Shown here: positions 1,586 through 62,930 of the stretch, piece after piece | Position numbering within the stretch: the stretch's first letter is position 1 | Layout of the letters: the number at the start of each line of letters is the position of its first letter | NCBI GenBank assembly: GCA_021791275.1 | Contig: JAJYWX010000001.1 | Location: 1,113 to 65,112, forward strand | DNA: 64,000 bases | Direction: 5' to 3' | Source: a bacterium | GTDB lineage: Bacteria; Patescibacteriota; Dojkabacteria; JAKAPS01; JAJZLI01 | Program-made: the position numbers and the translations under genes | Notes under the pieces: generated by a model | Told to the model about the DNA's origin: nothing | The model's input: the letters and a program-made list of their open reading frames with translations, nothing else | Databases searched by the model: none

Positions 1586-1611
1586 ATTTTATTTTTATTA
1601 AATATAAAGAT

Positions 1612-1696
1612 TACCGAGAGAGGGAATCGAACCCTCACGAGATAAATCTCGCAGGATTTTGAGTCCTGTGCGTCTACCTATTCCGCCATCTCGGCC
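1612..1696 (-). tRNA. tRNA-Leu (anticodon CAA), long variable arm
   Basis: Reverse complement folds as a type II tRNA: acceptor GCCGAGA/TCTCGGT, D-loop GGTAGA, anticodon loop CUCAAAA, long variable arm GCGAGATTTATCTCGTG, T-loop GGTTCGATTCC. It aligns well with E. coli tRNA-Leu(CAA). Confidence 0.8.
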
Positions 1697-1711
1697 TATT
1701 TATAAAAAATA

Positions 1712-3778: not shown

Positions 3779-3783
3779 AATTT

Positions 3784-4248
3784 TTATGCTAAATGAGAAA
3801 ATGCTTTATTTGATTCTGCCATCTTTTCTATATCTGTTTTTTTCTTAATAGCAGCACCTGTATTATTAAATGCATCAACGAATTCTCTAGTCAAACGATC
3901 TTCCATTGGCATACCCTTCTTATCCCTAGCAGCTGTTATAATCCATCTAATAGCCAAAGTTACTTGTCTATCAGGAGAAACAGGTACTGGGACCTGATAA
4001 TTTGCCCCACCTAACCTTCTAGACTTAACTTCCACGCTAGGAGATACATTATCAATCACTTTATCAAAAATATTTAATGGATTCTCTTTTAATTCGTTTG
4101 ATGATTTTTCTAATGCATTATAAACAATCTCCCTAGCTAGAGATTTTTTACCATCCTTCATTAATCTATTTATAAATTTTTCAACATTAATAGAAGAATA
4201 TTTAATATCTTGTGAAATTTTTCTTTTAATTGCTTTTTTCCCTCTCAT
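3784..4248 (-). CDS. rpsG: 30S ribosomal protein S7
   Basis: 154 aa, S7-like sequence, in conserved position between rpsL and fusA. Confidence 0.93.
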
Positions 4249-4263
4249 ATATATCTAATTAAA

Positions 4264-4677
4264 TTATTTATTTCTTTTAGATCCATATCTAGACCTTGCT
4301 TTTTTTCTGCCTTCTACACCCCCAACATCATCATATACACCCCTGACTATGTGATATTTAGCTACAGGAACATCTGGAACTCTACCAGCTCTAACTAAAA
4401 CTACAGAATGCTCTTGTAATTTATGACCTTCCCCAGGGATATAAGCAGTTACTTCCATCCTGTTAGATAATCTTACCTTAGTAATCTTTCTTAAAGCAGA
4501 ATTAGGCTTTTTAGGTGTTGTAGTCCTAACTACAGTGCACACTCCCCTTTTAAAAGGAGAATTTACCTTAACATATTTATTTTTTAATGGGTTGTACTTC
4601 AATGTTAAAGCCCTGTATTTAACTTTTTTTACCTTTGATTTTCTAGGTTTTCTAACTAATTGTGAAATCCTTGACAT
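4264..4677 (-). CDS. rpsL: 30S ribosomal protein S12
   Basis: 137 aa. Conserved S12 core ...[10 protein letters not shown]...VRGV...; canonical str-operon position. Confidence 0.93.
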
Positions 4678-4681
4678 AAAA

Positions 4682-12520: not shown

Positions 12521-13150
12521 CTATTTTGAATAAAATACTAAAGCATCGAAACTTAAATTTCCTGACTGGAAAAATAACTGTGGTTCTAAAACATTGGAAT
12601 TATTTGTATTCGGTACATAATTGGCATTATATACTAATATTTTTTGAGGATATAAGGATAGTGTTTCAAGAACAGAAAGAAAATTTTGATAAGTTCCCAC
12701 ACCACTTACAGAAACAGAGAAATTATTATATAAATTAACAAAAGAAAGACTAGTAGGTAAACTCGCACTAGACCCAAAAGAAATAGATTGTAATGAAACA
12801 TTATTATTATTTAATATTTCATAAATATTTCCTAATATAAAACCAGTATTTTCATTATTTGGGAAAATTACTTTTAATTTATTATATTTACTTTTTACCT
12901 TTTTTAAATATATAGCATAAGTAGAATTTATATCTTGATATCTGGTAGACATCTGCTGGTTTTGTGTATTTATTATATTAATAGTATTTAACTCACTAAA
13001 TATAGAATTTAACGTTGGGTATATTGCAAAGACAACAAAAACTATTATTACTATTAGTGAAAATGTTACATAATAGTAAAACTGAAAACGTTTATCTTGA
13101 AAACTATTAACTATTAACTCTTTTCCTTTTTTAATATCAAATTTATCCAT
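12521..13150 (-). CDS. PilO-like type IV pilus inner-membrane assembly protein (tentative)
   Basis: 209 aa with a short cytoplasmic N-terminus, one TM, a coiled-coil-like stretch, then a periplasmic domain. Overlaps the upstream PilN-like gene by 8 nt. Confidence 0.4.
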   Translation of the reverse strand: MDKFDIKKGKELIVNSFQDKRFQFYYYVTFSLIVIIVFVVFAIYPTLNSIFSELNTINIINTQNQQMSTRYQDINSTYAIYLKKVKSKYNKLKVIFPNNENTGFILGNIYEILNNNNVSLQSISFGSSASLPTSLSFVNLYNNFSVSVSGVGTYQNFLSVLETLSLYPQKILVYNANYVPNTNNSNVLEPQLFFQSGNLSFDALVFYSK

Positions 13151-13721
13151 ATATTCCCTTTATATTAAAAGATAAAGAATATTGAATTCCAGATTGTCCT
13201 TGAGATGATGAAGAACTATTCGAAAGTTGTGAGACTAAAACATTTGAAAAATCTTTGGTATCAGATTTAAAGTTATTTTCTAAATTCTGAATATCAGAAT
13301 ATGAATTTGCTGTACCAGTTATATTCATTTTATTAGATTGTAGGGATATTCCTGAAACATATATAGTTTGAGGTATTAATGATATAACTTTATTTAAATA
13401 GTATTCATCATGCACATGTATTGCATAAACATTTGATAATGCAGATATTTTAACTTGGTAACTAGATATTGTATCTATTTTTTTCACTGTTGAACTAGAT
13501 TCTAGTTTGCTTTGAATATTAAGAGAATTTGAAACTGCTGAAGCATATTCCTGATTTATTATAAATTTAATCCCAAAAATAATTATAGTAACGACTTCTA
13601 CCCCTATAACTATATATCTACCATATTTAGTAGCCCATAAGTAAAATAAATCAAAGGAATTCTTTGGGGCGTCAATATTATTTAAAAGATTTATTCCATC
13701 TATATTATTTTTATTGGACAT
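13143..13721 (-). CDS. PilN-like type IV pilus inner-membrane assembly protein (tentative)
   Basis: 192 aa. The N-terminal INLLNN motif resembles the PilM-binding INLLP motif of PilN, followed by a single TM and a periplasmic domain. Confidence 0.45.
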   Translation of the reverse strand: MSNKNNIDGINLLNNIDAPKNSFDLFYLWATKYGRYIVIGVEVVTIIIFGIKFIINQEYASAVSNSLNIQSKLESSSTVKKIDTISSYQVKISALSNVYAIHVHDEYYLNKVISLIPQTIYVSGISLQSNKMNITGTANSYSDIQNLENNFKSDTKDFSNVLVSQLSNSSSSSQGQSGIQYSLSFNIKGIYG

Positions 13722-27139: not shown

Positions 27140-28291
27140 CTATATGATTTTGAAGTTAATTAAGTCATTAAATGTAACAAAAATCATTAAAAGAATAAAA
27201 AATATTATACCCAAGATTGACAAATAGTACATCAATTTTTCATTTAATTTATAAGAAAATAACCCTTCTATTACTGCTAATAAAACATAGAATCCATCTA
27301 AAGGTGGTATTGGAAGTAAATTCATTATTGATAGAGATAATGATATTATTCCAAATATAAACAATAATCCCACTACACCATCTGTTTGGAATATGGAATT
27401 AGTGTACATATAGATACCTACAGGACCAGCAATCTGGCTTGTTATTATTTTGGAATTATTATGAATTATGGATTGATGAATTAAATAATAAAATCCTTGG
27501 AATGTAAGTTGCAATACATCATATGGAAAAGTAAAAATTGATAAAGCTTTTGATAAAAATGAGTTAAATTCAATATGAGATATTTCCTCTATAGATATCC
27601 CAACTGGTCCAGAATCCTTAGGATAATTAGATCTATCTAGAAAAGATTTACTATAAAATTTTCCTTCTGATATACCAAATAGATTTAAATTATTAACTTT
27701 ATAAAAATTAAATTTCAGAATTTTATTTTTATTAGAATCCACTAAACTTTCAATTTGAGAAATATTATGTATTTTTTTATTATCTATTGATTTTAAAATA
27801 TATAGCCCATTTAGTTTATCTTTATATACACTTGATGTTTTATCATTCGGAACTCCTGAGAATAAAACATTATTGACGTTAGTCCCAAATGTGAAATGAA
27901 AATTAGGTATTATATTTGAATAGTAAAATTTAAAATTTATTAATACTAGAAATATAAATAAAAACACTACTGCTGCTATAAAATTCATTACTACACCAGC
28001 TATTGTTATTAGAAATTTAGTTAATGGACTTGCTGCAGATAGTGATCCTTTAAGATTATTACTTGAATCATCCTCCCCAAATAAACTTACATATCCACCA
28101 AAAGGAAGAACATTTAGCCTATATTCAATTCCATTTCTTTTAAAGGAATATATTTTTGGTCCAAATCCAATAGCAAAGCTCTTTACAATAACACCTCTTT
28201 TTAAGGCAACAAACATGTGTCCCCATTCATGTATTATTATAAGTAGGCTTAAAAGGATTATAAAAATGAATAAAGTCAAAATATATTCCAT
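27140..28291 (-). CDS. rseP: site-2 protease (RseP/M50-family zinc metalloprotease)
   Basis: 383 aa. HEWGH (HExxH) in TM1, central PDZ-like region, NLLPIPPLDG motif. Confidence 0.8.
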   Translation of the reverse strand: MEYILTLFIFIILLSLLIIIHEWGHMFVALKRGVIVKSFAIGFGPKIYSFKRNGIEYRLNVLPFGGYVSLFGEDDSSNNLKGSLSAASPLTKFLITIAGVVMNFIAAVVFLFIFLVLINFKFYYSNIIPNFHFTFGTNVNNVLFSGVPNDKTSSVYKDKLNGLYILKSIDNKKIHNISQIESLVDSNKNKILKFNFYKVNNLNLFGISEGKFYSKSFLDRSNYPKDSGPVGISIEEISHIEFNSFLSKALSIFTFPYDVLQLTFQGFYYLIHQSIIHNNSKIITSQIAGPVGIYMYTNSIFQTDGVVGLLFIFGIISLSLSIMNLLPIPPLDGFYVLLAVIEGLFSYKLNEKLMYYLSILGIIFFILLMIFVTFNDLINFKII

Positions 28292-32385: not shown

Positions 32386-34239
32386 TTAATGATTACTAAA
32401 ATACCAGTTCATGAAATTTTTTACAACCTCTGCTGAATATGTACTAAGACCACCATTCTCTTCAAAAACAACCATAGCTATCTGAGGATTTTTAGATGGA
32501 GCAAATGAAGACATCCATGAATGAGAATGGTTATATCTATCACCTGATGTAGCTACATTTTCTACACCAAATTGAGCTGTTCCACTTTTTCCTGAATTAT
32601 CTGCAATTGTACTCTTCGCAGCAATATCTATCCCATCTTGGACTGCCATATACATACCTTGTTTTATAACATCTAAGTTTTTTGGGGAAACAAAACCTTC
32701 TCTTATTATTTTAGGTTTATATGTCTTTACCAACTTTCCTTGATAATTATATATATTCTTTATTATAGTAGGTTGCATTAATTTACCACCATTTGCTATA
32801 GCACTTATCCAATTAACAACTTGTATTGGAGTCACTTCTGTATATCCTTGACCTATGGCAGAATTTAGTAAATCCCCTGGAAGCCAAGATTGTCCAGTAA
32901 TTTCATATTTAGTTTTAGGATCAGCTATTATACCACTTACTTCCCCAGGAAGTTGTATATTCGTTTTTTGCCCTAATCCAAAATATTTTTCAAATTTAAC
33001 AAAATTATTTATCCCTATTTTCAATGCAGATTTAAAGGCAAAGACATTAATAGAATATTGTAAACATTTAACAATATCAGCAGATCCCCAATTAATTTTT
33101 GCATAGTTCTGAAAGGTTGTTCCATCATAAGTAAAGGTGCCAGGGACAGTAAAAACAGTATTTGGAGTAATTGCACCAGTCTGTAAACCAGCAGATAACA
33201 ATATAGTCTTCATTATTGATCCAACTGGTTGTTGCTCCGATATAGTACGATTTAAAAGTGGTGTATCAGGATTATTTAATAATTTATCATACTCAGTAGT
33301 ACTTATACCTGCCCCCTCAAAATCATTATTATTAAATGTAGGGTAACTAACCATCCCTAATATTTGTCCAGTATTTACATTTTCAACTATTGCCGCTGCA
33401 CCTGTAACATGATTAGGATTTGTTTTTATACTTTGTATAAGTAATTTCTGTAATTCACTTTGAATTCTTTCACTAATTGTTAATTGTATATTATCTCCAG
33501 GAACTGGCTGCTTCTCACCAAATTGGCTAACAACATTACCATAAGTGTTAATTTCATTTATTGTATATCCATCTTTGCCAGTTAAGTATTTATTCATACT
33601 CTCTTCAACTCCATACCTCCCAACAATATCAAATGGACTAACATTTTTTTCAGATAATAATTGTTGTTCACTTATTGGTCCTGTATAACCAATAATATGA
33701 GAAAATAAATTATTAAATTTAAATTTAATATATGAGTTGTCATTTACATTAACACCTTTAAGTCTAGAATCTGAAGAAATTAATATATCATTTTCCTTGC
33801 TAATATTTGTATCTATAGGTATTTCTACATAACCATTTTTCTTCCCAGTTTGTATTAATCTTGAAATCTTACTTTCTTTCATTCCTAATATTGGAGAGAG
33901 TATATTTATATCAGTATTAATCTGGTTCTCATTCAAATTTGAAATATTTATATAAACATTAAAGGATGGAACATTATATGAAAGTTGTTTCATGCCATTA
34001 CTGAATATTACCCCTCTAGGAGCAACAACAGTTTGAGTAATTAATTCATTATTCAAAGCAAGTTTATTATACTTATTATGATTTAATATTGATATATATA
34101 ATATATATAATAAAAAAATAATAAATATAAAAAAAATTATATATTTATAGAACTTAACAACAAAGTTTATATTTAGACTTTTATGGTCTCCATCGCCAGG
34201 AAATGTATTTAAATCTGAAATATCATCTATATTATTCAT
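32386..34239 (-). CDS. mrdA: penicillin-binding protein 2 (elongasome transpeptidase)
   Basis: 617 aa. N-terminal TM, SxxK-type motif (SIMKT), SxN and KSG(T) boxes; directly downstream of mreBCD. Confidence 0.82.
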   Translation of the reverse strand: MNNIDDISDLNTFPGDGDHKSLNINFVVKFYKYIIFFIFIIFLLYILYISILNHNKYNKLALNNELITQTVVAPRGVIFSNGMKQLSYNVPSFNVYINISNLNENQINTDINILSPILGMKESKISRLIQTGKKNGYVEIPIDTNISKENDILISSDSRLKGVNVNDNSYIKFKFNNLFSHIIGYTGPISEQQLLSEKNVSPFDIVGRYGVEESMNKYLTGKDGYTINEINTYGNVVSQFGEKQPVPGDNIQLTISERIQSELQKLLIQSIKTNPNHVTGAAAIVENVNTGQILGMVSYPTFNNNDFEGAGISTTEYDKLLNNPDTPLLNRTISEQQPVGSIMKTILLSAGLQTGAITPNTVFTVPGTFTYDGTTFQNYAKINWGSADIVKCLQYSINVFAFKSALKIGINNFVKFEKYFGLGQKTNIQLPGEVSGIIADPKTKYEITGQSWLPGDLLNSAIGQGYTEVTPIQVVNWISAIANGGKLMQPTIIKNIYNYQGKLVKTYKPKIIREGFVSPKNLDVIKQGMYMAVQDGIDIAAKSTIADNSGKSGTAQFGVENVATSGDRYNHSHSWMSSFAPSKNPQIAMVVFEENGGLSTYSAEVVKNFMNWYFSNH

Positions 34240-34241
34240 AA

Positions 34242-34739
34242 TTAAATATCTATCTTATACGCATTATCTCTATATTTTTTCTTAGAATAGAATAAATATA
34301 ATATTGAAGCATCTAATAAAATAACTATTATACAATAAATTATTAAACCAAAATTAATTTTGGAGAAAATACCAAATGAATAAGAATATATTATAAATAA
34401 TATATTAAAAATCAAACTTACAAATAAATACCCTAAAAAAGAAAGTATCTTCGTTGCTCTTAAATTTGAGAAAATATATATTACAAAAACTGGAATAAAG
34501 AAAATAATACTTGTAGAACCTATAGGTTTTAATAGATATAAATCTGTAATTACACCAAATATAAACGTTATTAAAAATACATATTTCCTTATTTTTTCAA
34601 AAAAATATAAAATTATTAGTAATACATATATTAAATTGAAAAGGATAATTGAGGTATATATCAAACTCAATATACCGCTGCTAAAAAGTGCTAATATTAT
34701 TAGCAATATAATATATGTCGCAAATAGAGTCTTATCCAT
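34242..34739 (-). CDS. mreD: rod shape-determining protein MreD (tentative)
   Basis: 165 aa polytopic membrane protein in the canonical mreB-mreC-mreD-pbp2 position. Overlaps mreC by 8 nt. Confidence 0.5.
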   Translation of the reverse strand: MDKTLFATYIILLIILALFSSGILSLIYTSIILFNLIYVLLIILYFFEKIRKYVFLITFIFGVITDLYLLKPIGSTSIIFFIPVFVIYIFSNLRATKILSFLGYLFVSLIFNILFIIYSYSFGIFSKINFGLIIYCIIVILLDASILYLFYSKKKYRDNAYKIDI

Positions 34740-35532
34740 ATTTTAATACGAAAACAGAATTTAAGTTATTAATATTAATAGCAGAATCAACACTTACAAC
34801 TTTAAATAAACTACTACTAGGACCATTTATTCCATTTATATAACCAATTATCAAATTTTTAGGCAAAGTCCCATTTAATCCAGAAGTTAAGACAATATCT
34901 CCAATGTGTACATTATCCAACTGAGTAATATCTTCCAACACTAGTCCACTAGAAAGACTTCCACTTAGTATTGCATTATTTTTATTAACAATAACAGGAA
35001 TATTTGTATTTATATTAGATATTAATCTAACTTTAGAATAATTATTATACGTTTTTGAAATTGTACCTACTAAATAATTCTTAAATATAACTGGATCGCC
35101 AACCTGAACACCCTGAGAAACGCCAGTATTTATATATGTGTAACCAAAAGTATTATTAAAATACATTATTTGAGAATAAATATAAGTACTTTTATTTTTC
35201 GAAGGAATATACCCTAACTGTTTTTTTAGAGCAATATTTTCATTTTTATATAAATTCAATTGAAATTCTAAAGATTTATATTTATATATACTATCCTCTA
35301 AGCTAGCATTTTTCCTTTCTATTGAATTTATATTATTTAAAGCACTTAAAAAGGTTCCTAAATTATAAGAAAATGATTCAGTTGAGACTCTCACTGGGGT
35401 TATAATTGGATCAAAAAAATTATATAGATATGCAAACCTAATTGTAAATAAGATTAGAAGTATATCTAATAATATATAGATAAAAAGACTATTAAAAAAT
35501 ATACCCTTATTATTTTTTTTTACCTTAACCAT
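34732..35532 (-). CDS. mreC: rod shape-determining protein MreC
   Basis: 266 aa. N-terminal TM, coiled-coil, C-terminal beta domains; follows mreB. Confidence 0.75.
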   Translation of the reverse strand: MVKVKKNNKGIFFNSLFIYILLDILLILFTIRFAYLYNFFDPIITPVRVSTESFSYNLGTFLSALNNINSIERKNASLEDSIYKYKSLEFQLNLYKNENIALKKQLGYIPSKNKSTYIYSQIMYFNNTFGYTYINTGVSQGVQVGDPVIFKNYLVGTISKTYNNYSKVRLISNINTNIPVIVNKNNAILSGSLSSGLVLEDITQLDNVHIGDIVLTSGLNGTLPKNLIIGYINGINGPSSSLFKVVSVDSAININNLNSVFVLKYG

Positions 35533-35535
35533 ATT

Positions 35536-36594
35536 TTATACATATGTATCTGAATCAGAAGAATTAATTGATTTCAATAAATCTATATCTTCTAAAATTT
35601 TAGCAGTACCTATAACAACGCTTTTAAGTGGATCATCTGCAACTACAAAAGGTACTTTTATTTTTTCTGAAAATAATTTTTTTATCCCACGGATAAGTGC
35701 TCCTCCTCCAGTAATATAAATTCCCCTTTCTGTTATATCAGAAACTAATTCTGGTGGAGTTTCTTCTAATGCATCATATATTGCTTCAATTATTATATTT
35801 AAGGAATTACTCATAGCTTCCCTTACTTCAGCCTCAGATATTGTTACTACCTTTGGCAAACCCAATAATATATCCCTACCTTTTATCTCAATTTTTTTGT
35901 TCTCTTTCCCCGGATATGCATTTCCTAAATTTATCTTTATTTTTTCAGCAGAAGTTTCTCCTATAAGCAGATTATATTTACCACGAACATAATTTATTAT
36001 ATCGTGAGTCAATTCATCTCCAGCTACCCTAATAGATTTGTCTACAACTATACCACCTAATGATATAACTGCAATATCTGAAGTTCCTCCACCTATATCT
36101 ACAATAAAGGATCCGGTAGCTTCAGTTATAGGTAGATCACAACCAATTGCAGCTGCCATTGGCTCTTCTATCAAATAAACATTTCTTGCTCCTGCTGAAA
36201 TTGCAGCATCTATGACTGCCTTCCTTTCTACCTCTGTTATGGCAGAAGGAATACCAATAACAACCCTAGGCCTAGCTATTTTGAAAAATTTTTGAGAATC
36301 TTTGTGTACTTTTTCTATGAAATAATGTATCATTTCCTTTGTAGACTCGAAATCTGATATCACCCCATCTTTTAAAGGCCTTATAGCTATAATAGATGCA
36401 GGAGTCCTTCCTAACATTTTTTGAGCATCATAACCAACAGAAAGAATTTCCTTGGTTTTAGTATTCATTGCAACAACAGAAGGTTCAGAAATACTAACAC
36501 CTTGATTTCTTACAAAAATTAAAGTATTAGCAGTACCTAAATCGATGCCTATATCAAAAGTAAAAATGTTCCAAAAAAAATCTGAAAATGCCAT
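35536..36594 (-). CDS. mreB: rod shape-determining actin homologue MreB
   Basis: 352 aa. DLGTANT phosphate-1 loop, EEPMAAAIG, VDIGGGTSD phosphate-2 loop (catalytic Asp present), GGGALIRG adenosine motif. Confidence 0.95.
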   Translation of the reverse strand: MAFSDFFWNIFTFDIGIDLGTANTLIFVRNQGVSISEPSVVAMNTKTKEILSVGYDAQKMLGRTPASIIAIRPLKDGVISDFESTKEMIHYFIEKVHKDSQKFFKIARPRVVIGIPSAITEVERKAVIDAAISAGARNVYLIEEPMAAAIGCDLPITEATGSFIVDIGGGTSDIAVISLGGIVVDKSIRVAGDELTHDIINYVRGKYNLLIGETSAEKIKINLGNAYPGKENKKIEIKGRDILLGLPKVVTISEAEVREAMSNSLNIIIEAIYDALEETPPELVSDITERGIYITGGGALIRGIKKLFSEKIKVPFVVADDPLKSVVIGTAKILEDIDLLKSINSSDSDTYV

Positions 36595-36847: not shown

Positions 36848-37567
36848 TTAAAATATTATAGATTTTAATATTAAATTTAGGGTTTGATTTATTGTGGAAG
36901 ATGGGAAATTAGATACTAAAGATATATTAGGCAGTATAAAACTTATAAATATCGTATGGTTTCCTATATTAATAGTTGCTGGGGATACAATACTCTTAAA
37001 AGTTGTTCCAGACTGATCTTTTATAGAGGAAGGCAATGCACCGCCTATTTCTATATTAGAAAAAGATGTTATACATGTATTATTGACAACTTCATATTGA
37101 AATCCCATTTGGGTTTCACATCCTAAAGTCTTACTATTTATGTAATATTTATAATAAGAGGTAGAGTTGATATTTATAATTGAATTTTTTGCAATTATTT
37201 GTTCTCCTCCTGATGCAAATGTCAAAGTAGATATTTCTGAATATTGAAATTTATATCCATTAGGAGATGTTGCTGTTATAACATCTGTATTATTTTGTGT
37301 ATTCGAACTAATTACCCAGCTTGAAGGATATTTAAAAGAATAACCATAAGTGGGGTTAGTATAAGTTAACCAACCTTTATATGGATTAACAACTGTATTT
37401 GTCTTTGGAGTTGTGTTCTTTAAAGTTACTGTACTTGTTGAAGATTTTTTAAAAGCAATGATATAAAATATTAATCCTAGAGTTATAAGAAGAAGTAATA
37501 ACAATATAAGCATTGTATCCACTTGCCATCTTTTAATACCACCAGTATTATCTGTATTCTTTTCCAT
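36848..37567 (-). CDS. hypothetical single-pass membrane/secreted protein, S/T/N-rich ectodomain
   Basis: 239 aa. N-terminal TM (LILLLLLLITLGLIFYIIAF). No recognisable motifs. Confidence 0.4.
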   Translation of the reverse strand: MEKNTDNTGGIKRWQVDTMLILLLLLLITLGLIFYIIAFKKSSTSTVTLKNTTPKTNTVVNPYKGWLTYTNPTYGYSFKYPSSWVISSNTQNNTDVITATSPNGYKFQYSEISTLTFASGGEQIIAKNSIININSTSYYKYYINSKTLGCETQMGFQYEVVNNTCITSFSNIEIGGALPSSIKDQSGTTFKSIVSPATINIGNHTIFISFILPNISLVSNFPSSTINQTLNLILKSIIF

Positions 37568-40125: not shown

Positions 40126-40758
40126 ATGCAAGGTCAAATAATACTCAACATTATACTTTTAGCTATTATTATAATAATTAGCATTTCCTTCCACGAGTTT
40201 AGCCACTCAATAATGGCATATATATTGGGAGATAGTACTGCAAAAGATCAAGGGAGATTAACACTGGATCCAACAAAACATATAACTATTTGGGGTTTAA
40301 TTTTTATGGTATTAACAGGATTTAGATTTGGATGGGGAAAACCCACACCGATTAATCCAAATAATTTAAAAAATAAATACTTATACATATTAATAATTGC
40401 TTTAGCAGGACCTATATCAAATATAATCCTTGCTCTATTTTTTGCATTACTATTAAAAATTAATATCTATGGAGATCTTACTAATTCAAAGATATTATAT
40501 ATTATAAACTACTTTATAATAATTAATGTAAGCTTAGCTATATTTAATCTAATACCAATACCACCACTAGATGGAGGGAACATATTAAATTTTATATTTA
40601 AAAAATCCTCAATAGAAGATTTCCTTTATAAATATGGTATATATATCCTTATAATAATGATATTACCTATAATCCCAATTAATGGATATGAATCATTAAT
40701 ACAAGTTATTATTACACCAATAATAAATTTCATATATACCATATTAATATTCCTGTAA
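40126..40758 (+). CDS. small M50/site-2-protease-family zinc metalloprotease (no PDZ)
   Basis: 210 aa. HEFSH (HExxH) in TM1 and NLIPIPPLDGG second motif. Confidence 0.65.
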   Translation: MQGQIILNIILLAIIIIISISFHEFSHSIMAYILGDSTAKDQGRLTLDPTKHITIWGLIFMVLTGFRFGWGKPTPINPNNLKNKYLYILIIALAGPISNIILALFFALLLKINIYGDLTNSKILYIINYFIIINVSLAIFNLIPIPPLDGGNILNFIFKKSSIEDFLYKYGIYILIIMILPIIPINGYESLIQVIITPIINFIYTILIFL

Positions 40759-44737: not shown

Positions 44738-45343
44738 TTACCATCCCATGTAATCTTGACTACTTATCTTATAATCAAATAATTCATCCTCTTTAAACCA
44801 AAGATTAATTTCATATTCAGCATCTTCAACTGAGCTAGATGCATGAATCAAATTATATATAGATCTCTTCTGAAAAGTTGCTATATCTAAATTATCCCAA
44901 GAATAATCTCCCCTAATTGTTCCAGCAGGAGATTCAATTGGATAGGTTGACCCAACAATTTTCCTAATCAATTTAATACATCCAGGTCCTTCCATAACGA
45001 TAGCTATAACAGGACCCAATGTTAAATACTTTTCATTTGAAGTATTTATAAATTTCCCTATTTCAAAAGGATCTGTAGTATTGAAATCTTTCTCTAACTC
45101 ATTTAATTTATTCTTATTTTTATAATCATCTATAACTTTATTCCCAACATTTAAACACCATTCTTCCGATACAGGATAGTGCTTTTTTGCCAAATATGAA
45201 TCAGGAAAAACCATTTTCATTCCTATAATCTTCAACCCAAGTTTTTCAAACCTGGATAATATTTCTCCTACAATACTCCTTGATACTCCATCATGTTTTA
45301 TTAAAATTAAAGATTTCTCATAGAATTTACTATTTTTGCTCAT
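44738..45343 (-). CDS. ndk: nucleoside-diphosphate kinase (with ~50-aa insertion)
   Basis: 201 aa. N-terminal LILIKHDGVSR (cf. FIMIKPDGVQR) and active-site His in NLIHASSS (cf. NIIHGSD). Confidence 0.75.
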   Translation of the reverse strand: MSKNSKFYEKSLILIKHDGVSRSIVGEILSRFEKLGLKIIGMKMVFPDSYLAKKHYPVSEEWCLNVGNKVIDDYKNKNKLNELEKDFNTTDPFEIGKFINTSNEKYLTLGPVIAIVMEGPGCIKLIRKIVGSTYPIESPAGTIRGDYSWDNLDIATFQKRSIYNLIHASSSVEDAEYEINLWFKEDELFDYKISSQDYMGW

Positions 45344-45370
45344 GATGTATGTTATTCCAATAAAATAAAT

Positions 45371-45399
45371 TTAACATATTGATGATTTTACTATATAAT
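45371..45399 (+). promoter_or_regulatory. candidate sigma-70-type promoter for tRNA-Arg (TTAACA-17-TATAAT)
   Basis: TTAACA at 45371-45376, 17-nt spacer, TATAAT at 45394-45399, 21 nt before the tRNA. Confidence 0.4.
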
Positions 45400-45420
45400 A
45401 TTTATTTATTCAAAAGCTAC

Positions 45421-45494
45421 GTCCCTGTAGCTCAGATGGATAGAGTGTCTCGGTCCTAACGAGAAGGTCATAGGTTCGAATCCTATCAGGGATA
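45421..45494 (+). tRNA. tRNA-Arg (anticodon CCU)
   Basis: Acceptor GTCCCTG/CAGGGAT (G1:U72), D-arm GCTC-AGATGGATA-GAGT, anticodon loop GTCCTAA, T-arm ATAGG-TTCGAAT-CCTAT. Confidence 0.85.
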
Positions 45495-45498
45495 ATGA

Positions 45499-46965
45499 TT
45501 ATAGTGAAAAAGGAAATATACTAGAATTCTTAATCAAATTTACAACATAAAGATATTTCTTACCACCTTTGAATGCATAATTAAATAGTAGATAATTATC
45601 ACCCGGAGAAATATAATAGTTTCCAATACTATTATTGGATATTAAATATTTATTATTTGACCCTATTGCTTGTTCATAAATGGACAAAGTCCCTCCCGAA
45701 GAATTCTTCTGTTGATAAAATATATAACTACCTAGATCGAATGGAGTTAAATTGTACATACTACTATAATCATTGCTAATAAGGGTATAAGAAGAATTTC
45801 CTATATAATAGGCATATAAGCTATTTGCCTTAGAAAGGATTATATAATTATTTTGGTCTCTAAAACTGACTAAATTATAATTTTTAGCAAACTTTATTCT
45901 ACCTGATAAGATATCATTTTTTATAGACAACAAATAATTATATCCGTTATTTGATGAAGCAACGATATATCCTCCAAAATTATTACCCAAAAGATTTGTC
46001 ACCTTTCCAGAAATCTTTGTTAAGGTGATTTTATCTGTTCCATCAATATTTGATATAAAAATATCAGTTTCGTTATTACTAAGATCATAATAAGTATATA
46101 CTATCTGTGATCCCAAAATTTCATAATGAAAGTCTTCAGATCCAAATAAAAACAGATATGCCTGCCCAGTAGATATATTTACACTTCCTAGCAAACTGCC
46201 TGATTGAATGATTATGTATTCAGATGACCCAGCAAAAGAAACCTTATTTATATTATTAATATATGGCAAATTAAAAAGCGACAATTTCCCAGAGGATACA
46301 TCATACAAATAGTAAATTTTATTATATTCTATAAGAAGATATGAATTTGAATAATCAGACATAATATTTATATTATACTTTGGATTAAAATTTAATTTTT
46401 TGGATAGATTAAATAGATATATAGGAAGAGTGCTTTTATTAATTTGAGATAAATCTAAATAATAAACTTTATACTCTTTTGATAAAGTTTCAACTATAAT
46501 GTATAAATAGTTATTTTGATATTTATAAAAGGTTTTATATACATATCCATCAGTTGATACTATACTCTGATTAATCTTACTAGGGATTAAGAATGCATCT
46601 ATATTTGTTATAATACTTGGTTTTACAGTGACTAAGCTTTGCCAAGCCACATAATTATTGGACTCAATCCTTAAATTATATGATCCCGGATTTAATGAAT
46701 TTAAAACGACAGGAGATGTTCCTATATAATGACCATTTAGATATACGTTGGAATTATTAGGAGTTGTATTTACTCGTAGTATACCAGTTGTTGTGATTGT
46801 AAAATTAGATAAATTTAGAGTGTATCCCCTAGCCACAAGCACAATTACACCCGCAACAATCAATAGTATCAATATAACAAAGAAAGAGTTTATCCTAGAA
46901 TATAATTTACTCTCCTTTAATTTATGAAAATTGCCCTTCTTGCTATTCTTAATGTCATTTTTCAT
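45499..46965 (-). CDS. membrane-anchored PEGA-domain protein with a repeat-rich (beta-propeller-like) ectodomain
   Basis: 488 aa. N-terminal TM (FFVILILLIVAGVIVLV), a PEGA-like segment (RVNTTPNNSNVYLNGHYIGTSPVVLNSLNPGSYNLRIE), then ~350 aa of Tyr/Asn/Ser-rich repeats ending -YY / -LY. Confidence 0.4.
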   Translation of the reverse strand: MKNDIKNSKKGNFHKLKESKLYSRINSFFVILILLIVAGVIVLVARGYTLNLSNFTITTTGILRVNTTPNNSNVYLNGHYIGTSPVVLNSLNPGSYNLRIESNNYVAWQSLVTVKPSIITNIDAFLIPSKINQSIVSTDGYVYKTFYKYQNNYLYIIVETLSKEYKVYYLDLSQINKSTLPIYLFNLSKKLNFNPKYNINIMSDYSNSYLLIEYNKIYYLYDVSSGKLSLFNLPYINNINKVSFAGSSEYIIIQSGSLLGSVNISTGQAYLFLFGSEDFHYEILGSQIVYTYYDLSNNETDIFISNIDGTDKITLTKISGKVTNLLGNNFGGYIVASSNNGYNYLLSIKNDILSGRIKFAKNYNLVSFRDQNNYIILSKANSLYAYYIGNSSYTLISNDYSSMYNLTPFDLGSYIFYQQKNSSGGTLSIYEQAIGSNNKYLISNNSIGNYYISPGDNYLLFNYAFKGGKKYLYVVNLIKNSSIFPFSL

Positions 46966-47028
46966 ATTTCATATTATTTATAGTATATGTTAAAATTATA
47001 CCATAAAATAATATCTTATCATTAAATC

Positions 47029-48039
47029 ATGTTAAATAATAATAAATTTGGACTAGACTTTGGAACATCTAATTCACTTATATCTCTTCAGAATAAAGGA
47101 ATAATATTAAATGAACCATCTGTAGTAGCAATATCAATAGATGACAATTCAATAATATCAATTGGGTATGAAGCAAAAGAAATGCTTGGCAAAACCCCAG
47201 AGGGAATAATATCAAAAAAACCAATTAAAGGAGGAGCTATAGCAAATTACAAAATATCTGAAATGATGATTAAATACTTTTTCTCAAAAGTCCCAAAGAC
47301 CAAATTTTTAACAGGATCTCAAGTTGTATCAAGCGTTTCTTCAGGATTAACTTCTGTAGAGAAAAGAGCTCTCTACGAAGCTATAATCAATTCTGGTGCA
47401 AAAAAGGTTTTCCTTATGCAAGAGACTCTACTAACTGCAATAGGATCAAACTTACCTATAGGAACATCTTCTGGAAATATGGTTATCAATATAGGCGGTG
47501 GCACTGCTGAATTTGCCATAATATCCCTTAATGGCGTTGTAGTTTCTGATTCAATAAGGGTTGGAGGTGAATACATAAATGACTCAATAATTAATTTTTT
47601 GAAAAAAAATAGATCAATAGTTATTGGGGATCAAATGGCAGAAAATATTAAAATAGAAATAGGGTCTGCGTTACCTTTAACTTCCCCATTAGAGATGGAA
47701 ATAAAAGGAAGGGATTCTATTACTGGAATGCCCAAATCAATAAATATAGATACGAATACTGTAGTTGAAGCTATCAAATCACCTTTAAATCTTATTATAC
47801 AGACTACTCGACAGTTACTAGAAAGAACACCACCTGAACTTTCTTCAGATATTATAGATAGAGGAATACTCTTAAGTGGAGGAACAGCACTATTAAGAAA
47901 TATAGATACTCTACTCTCTAGGGCAATAGGTATACCTGTATATATCAGCGATAACCCATTACTAACAGTCTCCAATGGAGCATCTGAAGCATTAAAGTAT
48001 ATGGATTCTCTTTCAAAAAATATAAAGAATCCATTATAG
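47029..48039 (+). CDS. second MreB-like actin homologue (divergent paralogue); catalytic Asp of phosphate-2 loop replaced by Asn
   Basis: 336 aa, roughly 40% identical by eye to the mreB at 35536-36594. It has GLDFGTSNS (phosphate-1), QETLLTAIG, INIGGGTAEF (DIGGG is replaced by NIGGG), and SGGTALL (adenosine motif). Confidence 0.8.
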   Translation: MLNNNKFGLDFGTSNSLISLQNKGIILNEPSVVAISIDDNSIISIGYEAKEMLGKTPEGIISKKPIKGGAIANYKISEMMIKYFFSKVPKTKFLTGSQVVSSVSSGLTSVEKRALYEAIINSGAKKVFLMQETLLTAIGSNLPIGTSSGNMVINIGGGTAEFAIISLNGVVVSDSIRVGGEYINDSIINFLKKNRSIVIGDQMAENIKIEIGSALPLTSPLEMEIKGRDSITGMPKSINIDTNTVVEAIKSPLNLIIQTTRQLLERTPPELSSDIIDRGILLSGGTALLRNIDTLLSRAIGIPVYISDNPLLTVSNGASEALKYMDSLSKNIKNPL

Positions 48040-48047
48040 ATTAAGGC

Positions 48048-49367
48048 ATGTATATATTTATATTATTAATAACAATATACTTAATTCTAGGTATAATAAG
48101 CATTAACTATCCTAAGCTACTCCTGCCAATATCTATATGCCTATTACCCTTAGAAAGATTTAACATATATATGGGGTTCTCTCTATCTCCATTAATATTA
48201 TATATACCAATAATATTACTATCTATATTTACTAATTTTAAAGAAATCAAAAAACAAATAAAGTTATATCCAATTAATAAAACTATTATTTATTCTCTTT
48301 TATTAATATTACTAGCAATAATTGTTACTGACGTTTTTGCAATAAATAGATTTTTATCATTAAAATCCTCAATATATGTCTTTATAACAGTATTTATGTT
48401 TATATTCGGATATTTATATATATCAATTTATAAAAATATAAAGACCATAATAAATAGTATAATAGTATCTGATCTAATAGTATCAATTTATGGAATAATA
48501 CAGTTTATATCTTATCTATTTTTCAAGAAGGATAGAATCGGATTATACAAGATTCTACATTCTTCCACAATTAATCCTAGTTATTTTTTAATAACAATTC
48601 ACCATATCTCAATTCTACGACCGGATTCAACATTCACTGATGTAAATACTGCTGCGGGATATATATTACTCTCTTTACCAATGATTCTAACACTATATAT
48701 TTTAAATAAAAGAAAAAAATATAATGAATATATTAATAGATATTTAATAAATTTATCCCCAATAATAGCAATATATTTTATATTGACTTTTTCAAAAAGT
48801 GCCTTTATTGGATTATTTATAATAATCTTGTATTTAATATATATTTATAAAATATATAAAAATACCTTATTTAAATATTTCTTTACTCTAACTGTTATTT
48901 TAGTATTAGCTATATCTTACAAAATTAACTTAATAAAGTATGTATATACGAAAGAAAAATATTCATATTTAGGTCATTTTATATTAACTAAATATTCTTA
49001 TTATATATTTGAAAAACACCCCATTACTGGAACAGGAATAGGAAGTTTTACTTACTACTTCGGAACATATATAAAACCCTATATACAATATTATTATAAT
49101 AATATTGATAATCCTCCAGTAATATTACTATGGCTTTCAGAGATAGGTTTAATAGGATTTATTGCATATCTAAATTTCTTTATAAATTATTTCAGAGATA
49201 TAGTGGGATCAAATCATAGAAAAAGTACTTTAAGGAAATACCTTGAAAAAGCATTTATTGCAGGTATAATAGGGATATTGATAGCAAATTTATTTCATTC
49301 CTATCTAACACTAATATTTAATTGGGAATTAATGGGAGTATTTTTAGGTATAATATATATCATATAA
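48048..49367 (+). CDS. polytopic membrane protein, O-antigen ligase/polymerase (Wzy_C / WaaL-PglL superfamily)-like
   Basis: 439 aa with about 10-12 TM segments. A C-proximal loop reads FEKHPITGTGIGSFTYYF...LLWLSEIGLIGFIAY, resembling the Wzy_C H...E.G..G signature. Starts 9 nt after the MreB-paralogue stop. Confidence 0.45.
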   Translation: MYIFILLITIYLILGIISINYPKLLLPISICLLPLERFNIYMGFSLSPLILYIPIILLSIFTNFKEIKKQIKLYPINKTIIYSLLLILLAIIVTDVFAINRFLSLKSSIYVFITVFMFIFGYLYISIYKNIKTIINSIIVSDLIVSIYGIIQFISYLFFKKDRIGLYKILHSSTINPSYFLITIHHISILRPDSTFTDVNTAAGYILLSLPMILTLYILNKRKKYNEYINRYLINLSPIIAIYFILTFSKSAFIGLFIIILYLIYIYKIYKNTLFKYFFTLTVILVLAISYKINLIKYVYTKEKYSYLGHFILTKYSYYIFEKHPITGTGIGSFTYYFGTYIKPYIQYYYNNIDNPPVILLWLSEIGLIGFIAYLNFFINYFRDIVGSNHRKSTLRKYLEKAFIAGIIGILIANLFHSYLTLIFNWELMGVFLGIIYII

Positions 49368-49400
49368 GAGTAGACAAATTTAAAATAAATTTGCCTACTC
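49368..49400. terminator. bidirectional intrinsic-terminator-like hairpin between convergent genes (Wzy_C-like gene and rplL)
   Basis: GAGTAGACAAATTT-aaaat-AAATTTGCCTACTC is a 14-bp stem with one A/C mismatch. It lies exactly between the stop at 49367 (+) and the stop at 49416 (-). Confidence 0.4.
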
Positions 49401-49415
49401 AAACTAATTAAAATA

Positions 49416-49820
49416 TTATTTTAAGGTTATTTTTGCTCCAACCTCTTCAAATAATTTCTTTATTTTATCTGCTTCTTCTTTGTTAACTGACTCTTTCAAT
49501 GCCTTTGGAGTAGCCTCTGTTATATCTTTTGCTTCCTTTAAACCTAATTCTGGATTAATGCTTCTAATAGCCTTAATAACTTCAATCTTCTTATCTCCTG
49601 CACTTTCTAGAATTACATCAAATGAATCTTTCGCTTCTTGACTCTGAGAACCATCTTGTTGTGCTGAATTATTATCTCCATTAGGCGCTGAAACGACTTG
49701 AACTTGACTACTAGCCTTTACTCCAAATTCATCCTCAAGAGCCTTTACCAACTCAGATATCTCCAAGATATTCATTTTCCCTATTTCAGAGATTATATCT
49801 TTAATTTTTTTATTTTCCAT
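49416..49820 (-). CDS. rplL: 50S ribosomal protein L7/L12
   Basis: 134 aa. N-terminal dimerisation helix, Ala/Gly/Ser/Gln hinge, C-terminal domain ...EAKDITEATPKALKE... Confidence 0.92.
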   Translation of the reverse strand: MENKKIKDIISEIGKMNILEISELVKALEDEFGVKASSQVQVVSAPNGDNNSAQQDGSQSQEAKDSFDVILESAGDKKIEVIKAIRSINPELGLKEAKDITEATPKALKESVNKEEADKIKKLFEEVGAKITLK

Positions 49821-61205: not shown

Positions 61206-62930
61206 TCATATTTTTTTATTAATCTCGTACATTTTTTTCACTTCATCTATTTTAGTAGAATCATATACGCCTTTATCGTTTCGAAAAGAAATAAACCTAG
61301 GGAATCTTAAAGCAAAATTGGAAGTATGTACAGGGCTTTTGCTAATTTCATCAAATTTTACTGTGACGACAAGATATGGTTCTACCCAATAATCAGGAAT
61401 AATATTTTTATTATATAAGTAAGATTTATCAGGATTATTCATTAAGTGTAAATCTAAATCTTTTTTTAATTCGACTAAAACTTTTTGAGAAAAACCACTT
61501 CCTAGCTTACATATAGTCTTAAATTTCATACTTTTATCATCATATATACCTAAAAGAACCCCCCCAATACCAAATTTAGATCTTATTCCTTCCCCACTAT
61601 AATATCCCATTATTACAGCATCAATAGTATCAACAACTCCAACTAAAGAATCTTTTTTTAACTTCAACCAATCTGAATTTCTTGTTCCTGGAGAATATAC
61701 ACTTTTAGGATTTTTGATTACTATACCCTCTAATCCTTCATTTATACATTTTTCAAAATAATTATATATCTTATCCTTATTATTCATCTTTATAGTATCT
61801 GTAATTTCTATTCCAGATAAATCTATAGAATTATTATCAAAAAAATTTCTTAAAACTAATAATCTATTAGACAAAGACTCATTAAGAAAAGATTTCTTAT
61901 TTAAATAAATTAAATCAAAAATAAATGCTTTTATTTTAGTATTATCAGTTGCGATAATATTATTTTTCCTTTTCATTTTAACTGTATCTTGGAAAGCCAA
62001 AAATTTATTTGTACTTAAATCCAAACCTAATATTTCAGAATCAAATATAGCTCCGTTAATATTCATATTTTTAAATTTAGAGACAAAATCAGGAAACATC
62101 TCCGTAATATCATTTAAATTTCTAGAAAACAATTTCACATTTGAATTTTCATCTATATGTATTTGACATCTAATGCCGTCAAATTTAGGCTGCACATAAA
62201 CCTCCCCAAACCGCTTAATAGGTTCTTCAAAATTCTCGGCCCTATCAACTAATTTCGGGAAAATAGGTATTCCAACTTTAACAGATAAATCCCTTATAGA
62301 ATGAATATCAGAAATGGCCATTTTTGCTACAACCCCAAGATCAGAACATTTATAATAGGCTTCTTCTATGTATTTTAAGGAGCTTTTATCATTCGACGGG
62401 GAGATTGACAAAGCACTCAATATTGTCTTATATCCAAAGCCAAGTCTGAAATTTGAAAGTATAATTCGTATAAAGTATTTTCCTTCTTGTCCAGAAAGCG
62501 AAGAAAGCGTTTGATTAAGAAGATTCTCCTTTATCTCCATAGACTTATCTCCACTAGTATTAGCTATATTTTTCAAAATCAAAAATATATCAGAAAAACT
62601 CTTTTCACTAGGAGATAAATTTTGGTTTCTAAAATATACTTCCCCTAGATCTCCATATTTATGTATTTCATTTTGTATAAATTCTGAATCTTTCTTAAAA
62701 ATATTCGAAAGTACCTTAATTAAAATTTTCTTACCAATATTAAAATCTGACTTTATATAAAAAGGTTCTACTCTACCATTTAATATATACATAAGTTTTG
62801 GTATATCTTCTACTGGAGTTATATTTATAAGCTCAGAAAGTATTTTAATGATTTTTAGTCTAGAACTTTCTGATTCCAATATATCAAGATAATTACATAT
62901 TTCAAAAAATTTTATATTTTTCTCTCTCAT
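61206..62930 (-). CDS. ATP-dependent DNA ligase (Lig1/LigB-type, with N-terminal DNA-binding domain)
   Basis: 574 aa. Motif I KFDGIR (adenylation lysine), motif III-like FIFDLIYLN, motif IV EGIVIK, motif V WLKLKKD, C-terminal OB domain. Confidence 0.85.
   Translation of the reverse strand: MREKNIKFFEICNYLDILESESSRLKIIKILSELINITPVEDIPKLMYILNGRVEPFYIKSDFNIGKKILIKVLSNIFKKDSEFIQNEIHKYGDLGEVYFRNQNLSPSEKSFSDIFLILKNIANTSGDKSMEIKENLLNQTLSSLSGQEGKYFIRIILSNFRLGFGYKTILSALSISPSNDKSSLKYIEEAYYKCSDLGVVAKMAISDIHSIRDLSVKVGIPIFPKLVDRAENFEEPIKRFGEVYVQPKFDGIRCQIHIDENSNVKLFSRNLNDITEMFPDFVSKFKNMNINGAIFDSEILGLDLSTNKFLAFQDTVKMKRKNNIIATDNTKIKAFIFDLIYLNKKSFLNESLSNRLLVLRNFFDNNSIDLSGIEITDTIKMNNKDKIYNYFEKCINEGLEGIVIKNPKSVYSPGTRNSDWLKLKKDSLVGVVDTIDAVIMGYYSGEGIRSKFGIGGVLLGIYDDKSMKFKTICKLGSGFSQKVLVELKKDLDLHLMNNPDKSYLYNKNIIPDYWVEPYLVVTVKFDEISKSPVHTSNFALRFPRFISFRNDKGVYDSTKIDEVKKMYEINKKI

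Follow-up and report, generated by a model that had tools for sequence, protein, structure and literature searches.

A divergent PEGA-propeller and MreB gene pair neighbouring envelope-glycan enzymes in Patescibacteria

Described MreB systems and the layout of the locus

MreB is known almost wholly for organising how rod-shaped model bacteria elongate their peptidoglycan, as part of the Rod complex (MreB–MreC–MreD–RodZ with RodA–PBP2). A precedent for MreB organising a secondary wall polymer is the teichoic acid machinery (Tag, TagTUV) of Bacillus subtilis, where LCP enzymes were found as MreB partners; TagA produces the linkage unit of wall polymers (PMC7831098). Takahashi et al. (bioRxiv 10.1101/2020.05.13.095042) reported two clades of MreB in CPR bacteria, in a work that does not deal with neighbouring genes, partners or differences in motifs.

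We analysed a 64,000-nucleotide stretch of Dojkabacteria DNA (the window), which carries two mreB genes, in keeping with the two-clade picture. The second, mreB2 (47029..48039, plus strand, 336 aa), is flanked by a divergent gene for a PEGA-propeller protein (45499..46965, minus strand, 488 aa) and is followed, 8 nt after its stop codon, by the start codon of a gene for a WaaL-type membrane protein (48048..49367, plus strand, 439 aa). The 63 bp between the divergent genes (46966..47028) presumably hold a bidirectional promoter region. The triad thus consists of a divergent pair and a closely spaced operon, and mreB2 and the WaaL-type gene are probably co-transcribed. A scan of positions 45300–49500 found no terminators, and, the DNA being AT-rich, a promoter scan of the same region gave no usable signal (34 sites, 35 expected). 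The coordinates, strands, lengths and divergent gap all agree with the initial annotation, as does its placing of a canonical mreBCD–pbp2 cluster without rodA elsewhere. That cluster (mreB1–mreC–(mreD-like)–pbp2; 32386..36594, minus strand), which is followed by topA, is a comparator outside the module; mreB1 (MreB_Mbl, 459 bits), mreC and pbp2 (Transpeptidase and PBP_dimer) match their Pfam profiles, and the ORF at the mreD position has six TM segments. No SEDS gene was found within the window.

The module resembles the Rod complex in that an MreB-family protein is linked to a bitopic protein with a β-rich ectodomain, of MreC-like topology, and is genetically coupled to a membrane glycosyltransferase of the GT-C(B) fold, which uses Und-PP-linked substrates. 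However, the bitopic protein is built of a PEGA domain and an eight-bladed propeller and has no homology to MreC, the GT-C enzyme is WaaL-type rather than SEDS, and PBP, MreD and RodZ are missing from the module, which coexists in the window with a complete mreBCD–pbp2 set. The likeness to the Tag system lies in the TagA/WecG genes that directly follow the PEGA–MreB pair in seven lineages. In B. subtilis, in contrast, the link is a protein interaction with housekeeping MreBs, the transferases are LCP enzymes and there is no PEGA-propeller protein, whereas the module has a dedicated paralogue, an operon and a WaaL-type transferase. We found no description of MreB2's partners in the literature; what is new relative to Takahashi et al. 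is the partner with its PEGA domain and propeller, the mutual exclusion with MreC, the substitutions at phosphate 2 and the linkage to glycan enzymes.

The three proteins

MreB2 is an MreB by homology, as judged from its sequence, with an atypical active site. It matches Pfam MreB_Mbl (PF06723) over its full length with 384 bits (cut-off 27) and NCBIfam MreB (NF010539) with 396.5 bits (cut-off 293), which bears out its earlier description as a second actin-like paralogue; MreB chains top its PDB matches (E 9e-90), and it is 43% identical to MreB1. We anchored its residues on Caulobacter crescentus MreB (4cze). The phosphate-1 motif (LDFGTS) is present, and Glu132 and Thr159, which align with the catalytic pair of the C. 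crescentus protein, are kept. MreB2 lacks the canonical phosphate-2 motif DxGGGT, however, since the Asp is replaced by Asn154 (VINIGGGT), with the same Asn found throughout the clade; MreB1 retains DIGGGT. An N-terminal hydrophobic extension is absent from MreB2, and the protein belongs to a 57-sequence clade that is purely Asn-type. Hydrolysis-site substitutions with predicted slower turnover also mark specialised paralogues such as Spiroplasma MreB3 and further MreB/ParM-type actins, but those proteins are altered at other residues and have other partners, and the organisms studied here possess a wall.

The 488-aa protein comprises a basic cytoplasmic tail (residues ~1–26), a TM helix (~27–45), a juxtamembrane ARGY motif, a PEGA β-sandwich (61–124; PF08308, 53.7 bits, cut-off 20.8) and, in a structure predicted from a five-sequence alignment, an eight-bladed DPP-IV-N-like β-propeller (~133–476). 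The β-propeller was expected from the initial annotation, which had also described the protein as a TM-anchored PEGA protein with a Tyr/Asn-rich ectodomain. Indeed, Tyr makes up 12.4% of the protein (background 4.4%) and Asn 12.1% (background 7.6%); no other protein of the window reaches this Tyr+Asn fraction. This richness is a trait of the narrow clade rather than of the family; Ser+Thr are enriched 1.2–1.9-fold in the PEGA ectodomains of every lineage, with Tyr enriched in the window's clade. We rejected Tyr-O-glycosylation as a family-wide clue, since Tyr-richness is missing in the distant lineage L019 and in most others. The protein does not belong to the DPP-IV/prolyl-oligopeptidase (S9) family, as it does not combine the propeller with a C-terminal α/β-hydrolase peptidase domain. 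It has no Pfam match to MreC (PF04085), and its resemblance to MreC is one of topology alone (short tail, one TM helix, β-rich ectodomain). Across relatives the tail is ~8–30 aa long and not conserved in sequence, which makes direct binding to MreB speculative.

The 439-aa protein was proposed to be Wzy_C/WaaL-like, and this was upheld by a Pfam Wzy_C match at residues 239–375 (43.1 bits, cut-off 31.7); the orthologue in L019 scores 66 bits. NCBIfam gave no match. The sequence has ~11 hydrophobic segments, and the structure model, of moderate confidence (pLDDT 65), fits the GT-C(B) fold, which is marked by ~12 TM helices together with a long loop on the extracytoplasmic side. The family profile matched no PDB sequence even at E≤10, and only fold comparison worked; identity to the WaaL O-antigen ligase (GT121; PDB 7TPG/7TPJ) is 13%. 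In WaaL (7TPG), two Arg bind Und-PP and a His activates the acceptor (R191, R265 and H313; PMC10920833). In the family studied here R37, R191, D198, H310 and E365 are invariant, with R37, R191 and H310 invariant across 14 members and L019. H310 stands at the start of the long loop, inside which no conserved Arg was seen. Patescibacteria are unlikely to possess a lipid A-core acceptor, and we therefore call the protein WaaL-type rather than an O-antigen ligase in the strict sense.

Conservation and gene neighbourhood

Co-occurrence of the three genes in relatives, on which the idea of a system had been made to depend, was found in all nine GTDB loci (eight species) of the window's clade, including one with rearranged flanks (L005), and again in L019, with identities of 53% for MreB and 29% for the WaaL-like protein. 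As a unit, the triad holds in the narrow clade and L019; elsewhere only the PEGA–MreB pair is constant. A GTDB scan with the WaaL-like alignment reached the narrow clade only, and the wider distribution was therefore taken from MreB-based sampling. In this sample the divergent pair recurs in 17 further lineages with unrelated flanks, with the PEGA partners confirmed by Pfam (19–62 bits) and a divergent spacing of 26–98 bp in most relatives. An exhaustive search with the PEGA-family profile gave 13,832 matches swamped by multi-PEGA repeat proteins, with ~10 of the best 150 matching over the full length, and hence no clean family size. The conserved core and evolutionary unit is the divergent PEGA–MreB pair, and the third gene is variable.

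We compared the unique MreBs of the sample by context. PEGA adjoins 28 and MreC 30, with none adjoining both; mreC is thus next to 0 of the 28 PEGA-linked MreBs, and the mreCD genes of the window adjoin mreB1. The phosphate-2 motif is altered in 27 of the 28 PEGA-linked MreBs (the exception being L033) but in only 1 of the 30 MreC-linked ones (Fisher p = 4e-14, or 4e-10 when the narrow clade counts once, values that overstate the support because metagenome sequences were sampled for their similarity to an Asn-type alignment and the lineages are not independent). The active-site position that varies differs across lineages, being the phosphate-2 Asp, elsewhere the Thr and, in part of the clade, the Glu. 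Asn-type MreBs are also found with no detectable PEGA partner (6 of the 24 loci of neither context; L016).

The slot after MreB holds the WaaL-like gene in the window's clade and WecG/TagA, with or without GT4, in others; GT4 glycosyltransferases also occupy it outside the clade. WecG/TagA lies downstream of 7 of the 14 PEGA-linked MreBs outside the window's clade and of none of 45 other MreBs (p = 1e-5, likewise overstated), and any glycan gene downstream of 9 of the 14 as against 2 of the 45. Glycan enzymes are the only recurrent neighbours of the pair, ATP-grasp and MATCAP being sporadic. As universal third genes we rejected MATCAP (L021, L035), a sortase-like ORF (L024, L034) and a 230-aa signal-peptide/TM protein (L016, L020), all of which are sporadic. 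The alternation of WaaL-like with WecG/TagA and GT4 genes strengthens the reading of the locus as a cytoskeleton and envelope-glycan system, and, together with the conservation of the triad, supports the earlier suggestion that it is such a system rather than a duplicated elongasome.

It is unlikely, in our estimate, that the PEGA–MreB pair alone is the functional unit and the WaaL-like gene only a neighbour kept by the generally frozen gene order that surrounds ribosomal-protein operons. The narrow-clade region (rho, ndk, L7/L12, L10, clpB-like) is wholly syntenic, so that adjacency there is weak evidence, and a WaaL-like orthologue was found in just one lineage outside the clade. However, mreB2 and the WaaL-like gene lie −3 to 11 nt apart, sometimes with overlap and always on the same strand; L019 keeps the gene despite 29% identity and different downstream genes; and in other lineages different Und-PP-glycan enzymes fill the slot, which is far less common next to MreBs that lack the PEGA link.

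Possible roles of the module

The reading we prefer, tentatively though as a quite plausible one, is that the MreB-paralogue module organises the extracytoplasmic assembly or attachment of an undecaprenyl (Und)-linked wall or surface glycopolymer, in parallel to the peptidoglycan machinery MreB–MreC–MreD–PBP2 and apart from it. MreB2 would polymerise beneath the membrane, and its phosphate-2 Asp-to-Asn change may make the scaffold more static by slowing the turnover of ATP. As MreB2's counterpart of MreC or RodZ, the bitopic PEGA-propeller protein would couple the filament to the wall side via its short basic tail or via other membrane partners, and its PEGA sandwich and eight-bladed propeller may attach to wall material or bring in enzymes. 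A flipped Und-PP-linked glycan would be transferred en bloc by the WaaL-type GT-C enzyme to an acceptor, whether protein, glycolipid or wall-linked unit; from residue conservation, His310 is the candidate base, and Arg191 and Arg37 may hold the pyrophosphate. Neither a cytoplasmic glycosyltransferase nor a flippase adjoins the triad in the window, so that no donor pathway is seen there. More speculatively, the module could be a second actin machine independent of MreC and SEDS, made of a hydrolysis-impaired MreB, a dedicated transmembrane adaptor with PEGA and β-propeller domains, and Und-PP-glycan enzymes (WaaL-type ligase, TagA/WecG and GT4). This second envelope machine would pattern where a wall or surface glycopolymer other than peptidoglycan is deposited, as a 'glycopolymer elongasome' which, if true, uses an adaptor without a homologue in model bacteria.

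Such a module offers a testable answer to the role of MreB in the ultrasmall, often coccoid and host-dependent CPR bacteria, and its persistence in many lineages whose genomes are highly reduced argues for its importance. It would bring a new family of MreB partners (the TM-PEGA-propeller proteins), natural active-site variants (Asp→Asn, Thr→Ala, Glu→Asn) for the study of filament dynamics, and a handle on surface polymers that probably mediate contact between epibiont and host.

Protein O-glycosylation is a doubtful alternative, in which the WaaL-like protein is an O-oligosaccharyltransferase of the PglL/PilO/WsaB type and MreB2 positions the process, with the Ser/Thr/Tyr-rich PEGA-propeller ectodomain or pilins as possible targets. 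O-oligosaccharyltransferases are included among the Wzy_C/WaaL-type enzymes, and the organism is probably a monoderm without lipid A, so that a non-LPS acceptor is needed; the Ser+Thr enrichment in every lineage, and that of Tyr in the window's clade, would also fit. However, L019 has the WaaL-like gene without the Tyr-richness, and the partners in most lineages, WecG/TagA and GT4, are typical of wall-polymer linkage units, although a protein-linked glycan could be built by them too. Lipid, wall and protein acceptors are inseparable by sequence and fold.

It is improbable that the module serves motility or host attachment, with MreB2 filaments moving or anchoring the PEGA-propeller protein as a surface adhesin that the glycan enzymes decorate, by analogy with MreB-dependent gliding or the MreBs of Spiroplasma. 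Many Patescibacteria are epibionts, and β-propellers are common ligand-binding modules. In addition, Spiroplasma motility is driven by MreB paralogues with altered catalytic residues (bioRxiv 10.1101/2020.05.13.095042). Motor, adhesin-repeat and secretion genes, however, do not recur beside the PEGA–MreB pair. Improbable too is a second elongasome, in which the WaaL-like GT-C protein polymerises peptidoglycan for MreB2 as a surrogate for RodA, making up for the rodA absent beside mreBCD–pbp2: the 439-aa protein has no FtsW/RodA/SpoVE match (PF01098) in Pfam or NCBIfam even at E≤1, and neither its structural neighbours nor a class-B PBP partner identify it as SEDS (RodA/FtsW, GT119), so that a second RodA–MreB pair, named beforehand as the simpler explanation, is not supported.

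The triad had also been taken as the sole block of the window outside core housekeeping. Strictly this is not so, because a PilN-like gene and an unknown ORF lie at 12521–13721.

The triad and its conserved core

The initial annotation had placed a divergent pair and a third ORF at 45499-49367, and its exact positions and 63-bp divergent gap were borne out; the Pfam searches it proposed matched PEGA, MreB_Mbl and Wzy_C. The minus-strand gene (45499-46965) encodes a TM-anchored 488-aa protein with a PEGA domain at residues 61-124 and a β-propeller. On the plus strand, mreB2 (47029-48039) encodes a 336-aa protein that is a genuine MreB (MreB_Mbl, 384 bits), and is followed by the gene for a 439-aa WaaL-like protein (48048-49367; Wzy_C, 43.1 bits, cut-off 31.7). 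The tight spacing between these two genes held, with a gap of 8 nt rather than the 9 bp first given. MreB2 is only 43% identical to MreB1, the canonical MreB of the window, and lacks the hydrophobic N-terminal extension ('MAFSDFFWNIFTFD') of the latter.

We compared loci from related genomes and metagenomes (L numbers). The three genes do co-occur in relatives, a point raised with the initial annotation: the order PEGA(-)/MreB2(+)/WaaL-like(+) is kept at every narrow-clade locus spanning the region and in the distant lineage L019. The WaaL-like orthogroup comprises just 14 clusters (40-57% identity; 9 loci in 8 GTDB species), and the spacing from mreB2 to the WaaL-like gene is -3 to 11 nt throughout the loci. 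L005 and L006 keep the triad despite an inverted ndk and a relocated nusG-L11-L1 block. L019 (G+C 36%) has an extra GT2 gene, and its MreB and WaaL-like protein are 53% and 29% identical to those of the window, respectively.

Judged from sequence comparison, it is the PEGA-MreB pair that forms the conserved core. The nearest relatives of MreB2 outside the narrow clade, several of them named Dojkabacteria/WS6, are 50-55% identical to it, closer than MreB1 is. In L017, L019, L020 and L021 a divergent TM-PEGA-propeller gene lies 54-164 bp upstream of the MreB relative. A profile of the window's PEGA family matches the L019, L020 and L021 partners well past the PEGA domain; the L017 partner, missed by the first profile, has the same layout and reached E 4e-103 with a later profile that had L017 among its seeds. 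Among the PEGA partners, Pfam gave a firm match for five; for a sixth, in L031, the match was weak (19 bits, under the 20.8 cut-off). In all family members a short basic tail precedes a single TM helix, a '(A/S)xG(Y/W)' motif next to the membrane and then PEGA; the topology is that of MreC, although the two are not homologous.

A metagenome scan yielded 80 further MreB loci, and unique MreBs were then classed by neighbour. A PEGA-family gene is adjacent to 28 (17 of those lineages outside the narrow clade), mreC lies directly downstream of 30, and neither partner is present in 24 assessable loci; none of the classed unique MreBs has both. CPR MreBs form two clades, both found in some species (Takahashi et al., bioRxiv 10.1101/2020.05.13.095042). 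In the literature searched we found no mention of PEGA domains together with MreB, in line with the initial annotation, which did not recognize the triad as a described system, and the main CPR protein-family survey mentions neither MreB, PEGA nor O-antigen ligases. Within that literature, the PEGA partner, the mutual exclusion between it and mreC, the substitutions in the active site and the link to glycan enzymes appear undescribed.

Active site of the PEGA-linked MreBs

The phosphate-2 motif of the nucleotide site reads 'VINIGGGT' in MreB2 versus 'VDIGGGT' in MreB1. Almost all MreBs keep a catalytic Glu and Thr (Takahashi et al., bioRxiv 10.1101/2020.05.13.095042). Alignment to C. crescentus MreB (4cze) identified this pair as Glu132 and Thr159 of MreB2, and put Asn154 in place of the Asp five residues ahead of the catalytic Thr. 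We take the native C. crescentus numbering of the pair and the Asp to be E140/T167/D162.

The motif is altered in 27/28 PEGA-linked MreBs versus 1/30 MreC-linked ones (Fisher p = 4e-14; 4e-10 when the narrow clade counts only once), counts and p-values that come from non-independent lineages and from a sample drawn with an Asn-type alignment. The PEGA-linked changes are Asp→Asn (21), Asp→Ser (1) and 'DIGGGA', in which the Thr is lost (5). A neighbour-joining tree groups MreB2 with Asn-type sequences only, in a clade of 57, and sets MreB1 apart on a long branch of its own. Mutants of the corresponding Asp in MreB and ParM suggest, by analogy, that the motif changes would slow hydrolysis and make filaments more stable. 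In the orthologs of L005, L006, L010 and L015 the catalytic Glu is also replaced by Asn ('LMPNI'/'LVPNV' in place of the 'PE[PAS]' of the others), and their sequences suggest progressive loss of ATPase capacity in this branch.

Glycan enzymes and possible function

In lineages beyond the clade of the window, the position after MreB holds a WecG/TagA/CpsF-family glycosyltransferase in L023, L024, L034, L060, L066, L096 and L097, and GT4 enzymes in L023, L024, L031 (two copies) and L033. In L021 the PEGA gene is adjoined by a GT2-type gene, and L031 has a MurA/EPSP-family gene between PEGA and MreB. In a profile-based control covering every locus with 2.5 kb or more downstream, a WecG/TagA gene comes after 7/14 PEGA-linked MreBs versus 0/45 others (p = 1e-5), and a glycan gene of any kind after 9/14 versus 2/45. 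In wall teichoic acids and other wall glycopolymers, the Und-PP-linked linkage unit is made by TagA; in B. subtilis, LCP ligases came to light as partners of MreB (PMC7831098). Given this recurrence of Und-PP-glycan genes beside the PEGA-MreB pair, the WaaL-type gene of the window is one variant of the theme.

On comparative and predictive grounds we tentatively favour a reading in which MreB2 would form a slowly turning-over, membrane-associated scaffold, and the PEGA-propeller protein would be its MreC-like transmembrane adaptor and a wall-side reader or recruiter. The WaaL-type enzyme would transfer a flipped Und-PP-glycan extracytoplasmically, the acceptor being a lipid, the wall or a protein. 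It is rather unlikely that the triad is specifically a protein O-glycosylation system of the PglL/WsaB type, and equally so that the PEGA-MreB unit is real and the WaaL-like gene a mere neighbour. An adhesion or motility device is improbable, and a second elongasome with a RodA surrogate seems more improbable still. The canonical cluster mreB1-mreC-(6-TM MreD-like ORF)-pbp2 lies elsewhere on the minus strand (36594-32386, topA next), as first annotated, and neither rodA nor any other SEDS gene was found within the window.

Other neighbours and the window

In the WecG/TagA-family proteins of L060 (1855-2703), L066 (3603-4469) and L096 (7330-8217), which neighbour MreBs of the 'DIGGGA' type, ~115-130 extra N-terminal residues precede the catalytic domain; L023, L024 and L034 have shorter copies without this extension. 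L018/L022 (one contig, Ga0265297_10000459; 163-7008) is another MreB-glycan adjacency in Patescibacteria: an Asp-type canonical MreB, with neither mreC nor PEGA, directly follows three GT2 glycosyltransferases and a DUF4012 protein.

A MATCAP-family peptidase follows the pair in L021 (6018-11017; Pfam), with a homolog, found by jackhmmer, in L035 (7056-11927). ATP-grasp/RimK-like ligase clusters do so in several lineages, one ligase in L028 (1400-5284) having a weak tubulin-tyrosine-ligase match. L019 (4965-7072) has an ATPgrasp_ST and 7TM_transglut pair, and L028 a similar arrangement judging from layout alone. These neighbours recall the cycle of ligase and carboxypeptidase that acts on cytoskeletal C-termini in eukaryotes and, by that analogy, might modify PEGA-linked MreB post-translationally. 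L034 (1352-2035) and L024 (3934-4671) each have a sortase-like ORF (TLQTC motif) next to the module. In the Dojkabacteria-like loci L016 (5309-6004; no PEGA gene detected) and L020 (6013-6705), MreB is flanked by a 230-aa protein that begins with a signal peptide and ends in a TM anchor.

The window (G+C ~28%) is nearly all housekeeping, with rpoB/C, ribosomal proteins, tRNA synthetases, an rRNA operon, tmRNA and a DNA ligase. Proteins identical to its own are encoded on as many as 16 contigs, which derive from several sequencing runs. The triad had been called its sole non-housekeeping block, which does not hold, because a minus-strand block at 12521-13721 is probably a partial set of type IV pilus assembly genes: a PilN-like gene (13143-13721) adjoins a 209-aa ORF (12521-13150; no Pfam match, Tyr+Asn 20%). 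GC skew is strongly negative at minus-strand genes (1-36 kb and past 48 kb), whereas across the plus-strand block (36-48 kb) it is close to zero or positive. It thus tracks the direction of transcription rather than marking a replication origin. Just upstream of mreB1, a 239-aa ORF (36848-37567, minus) has a sub-threshold PsbP_2 match. Two M50-peptidase-like genes are present, one full-length (27140-28291, 383 aa) and one short (40126-40758, 210 aa). Most bacteria rely on an NAD-dependent DNA ligase; the window encodes an ATP-dependent one (61206-62930, minus) with all three domains, DNA_ligase_A_N/M/C.
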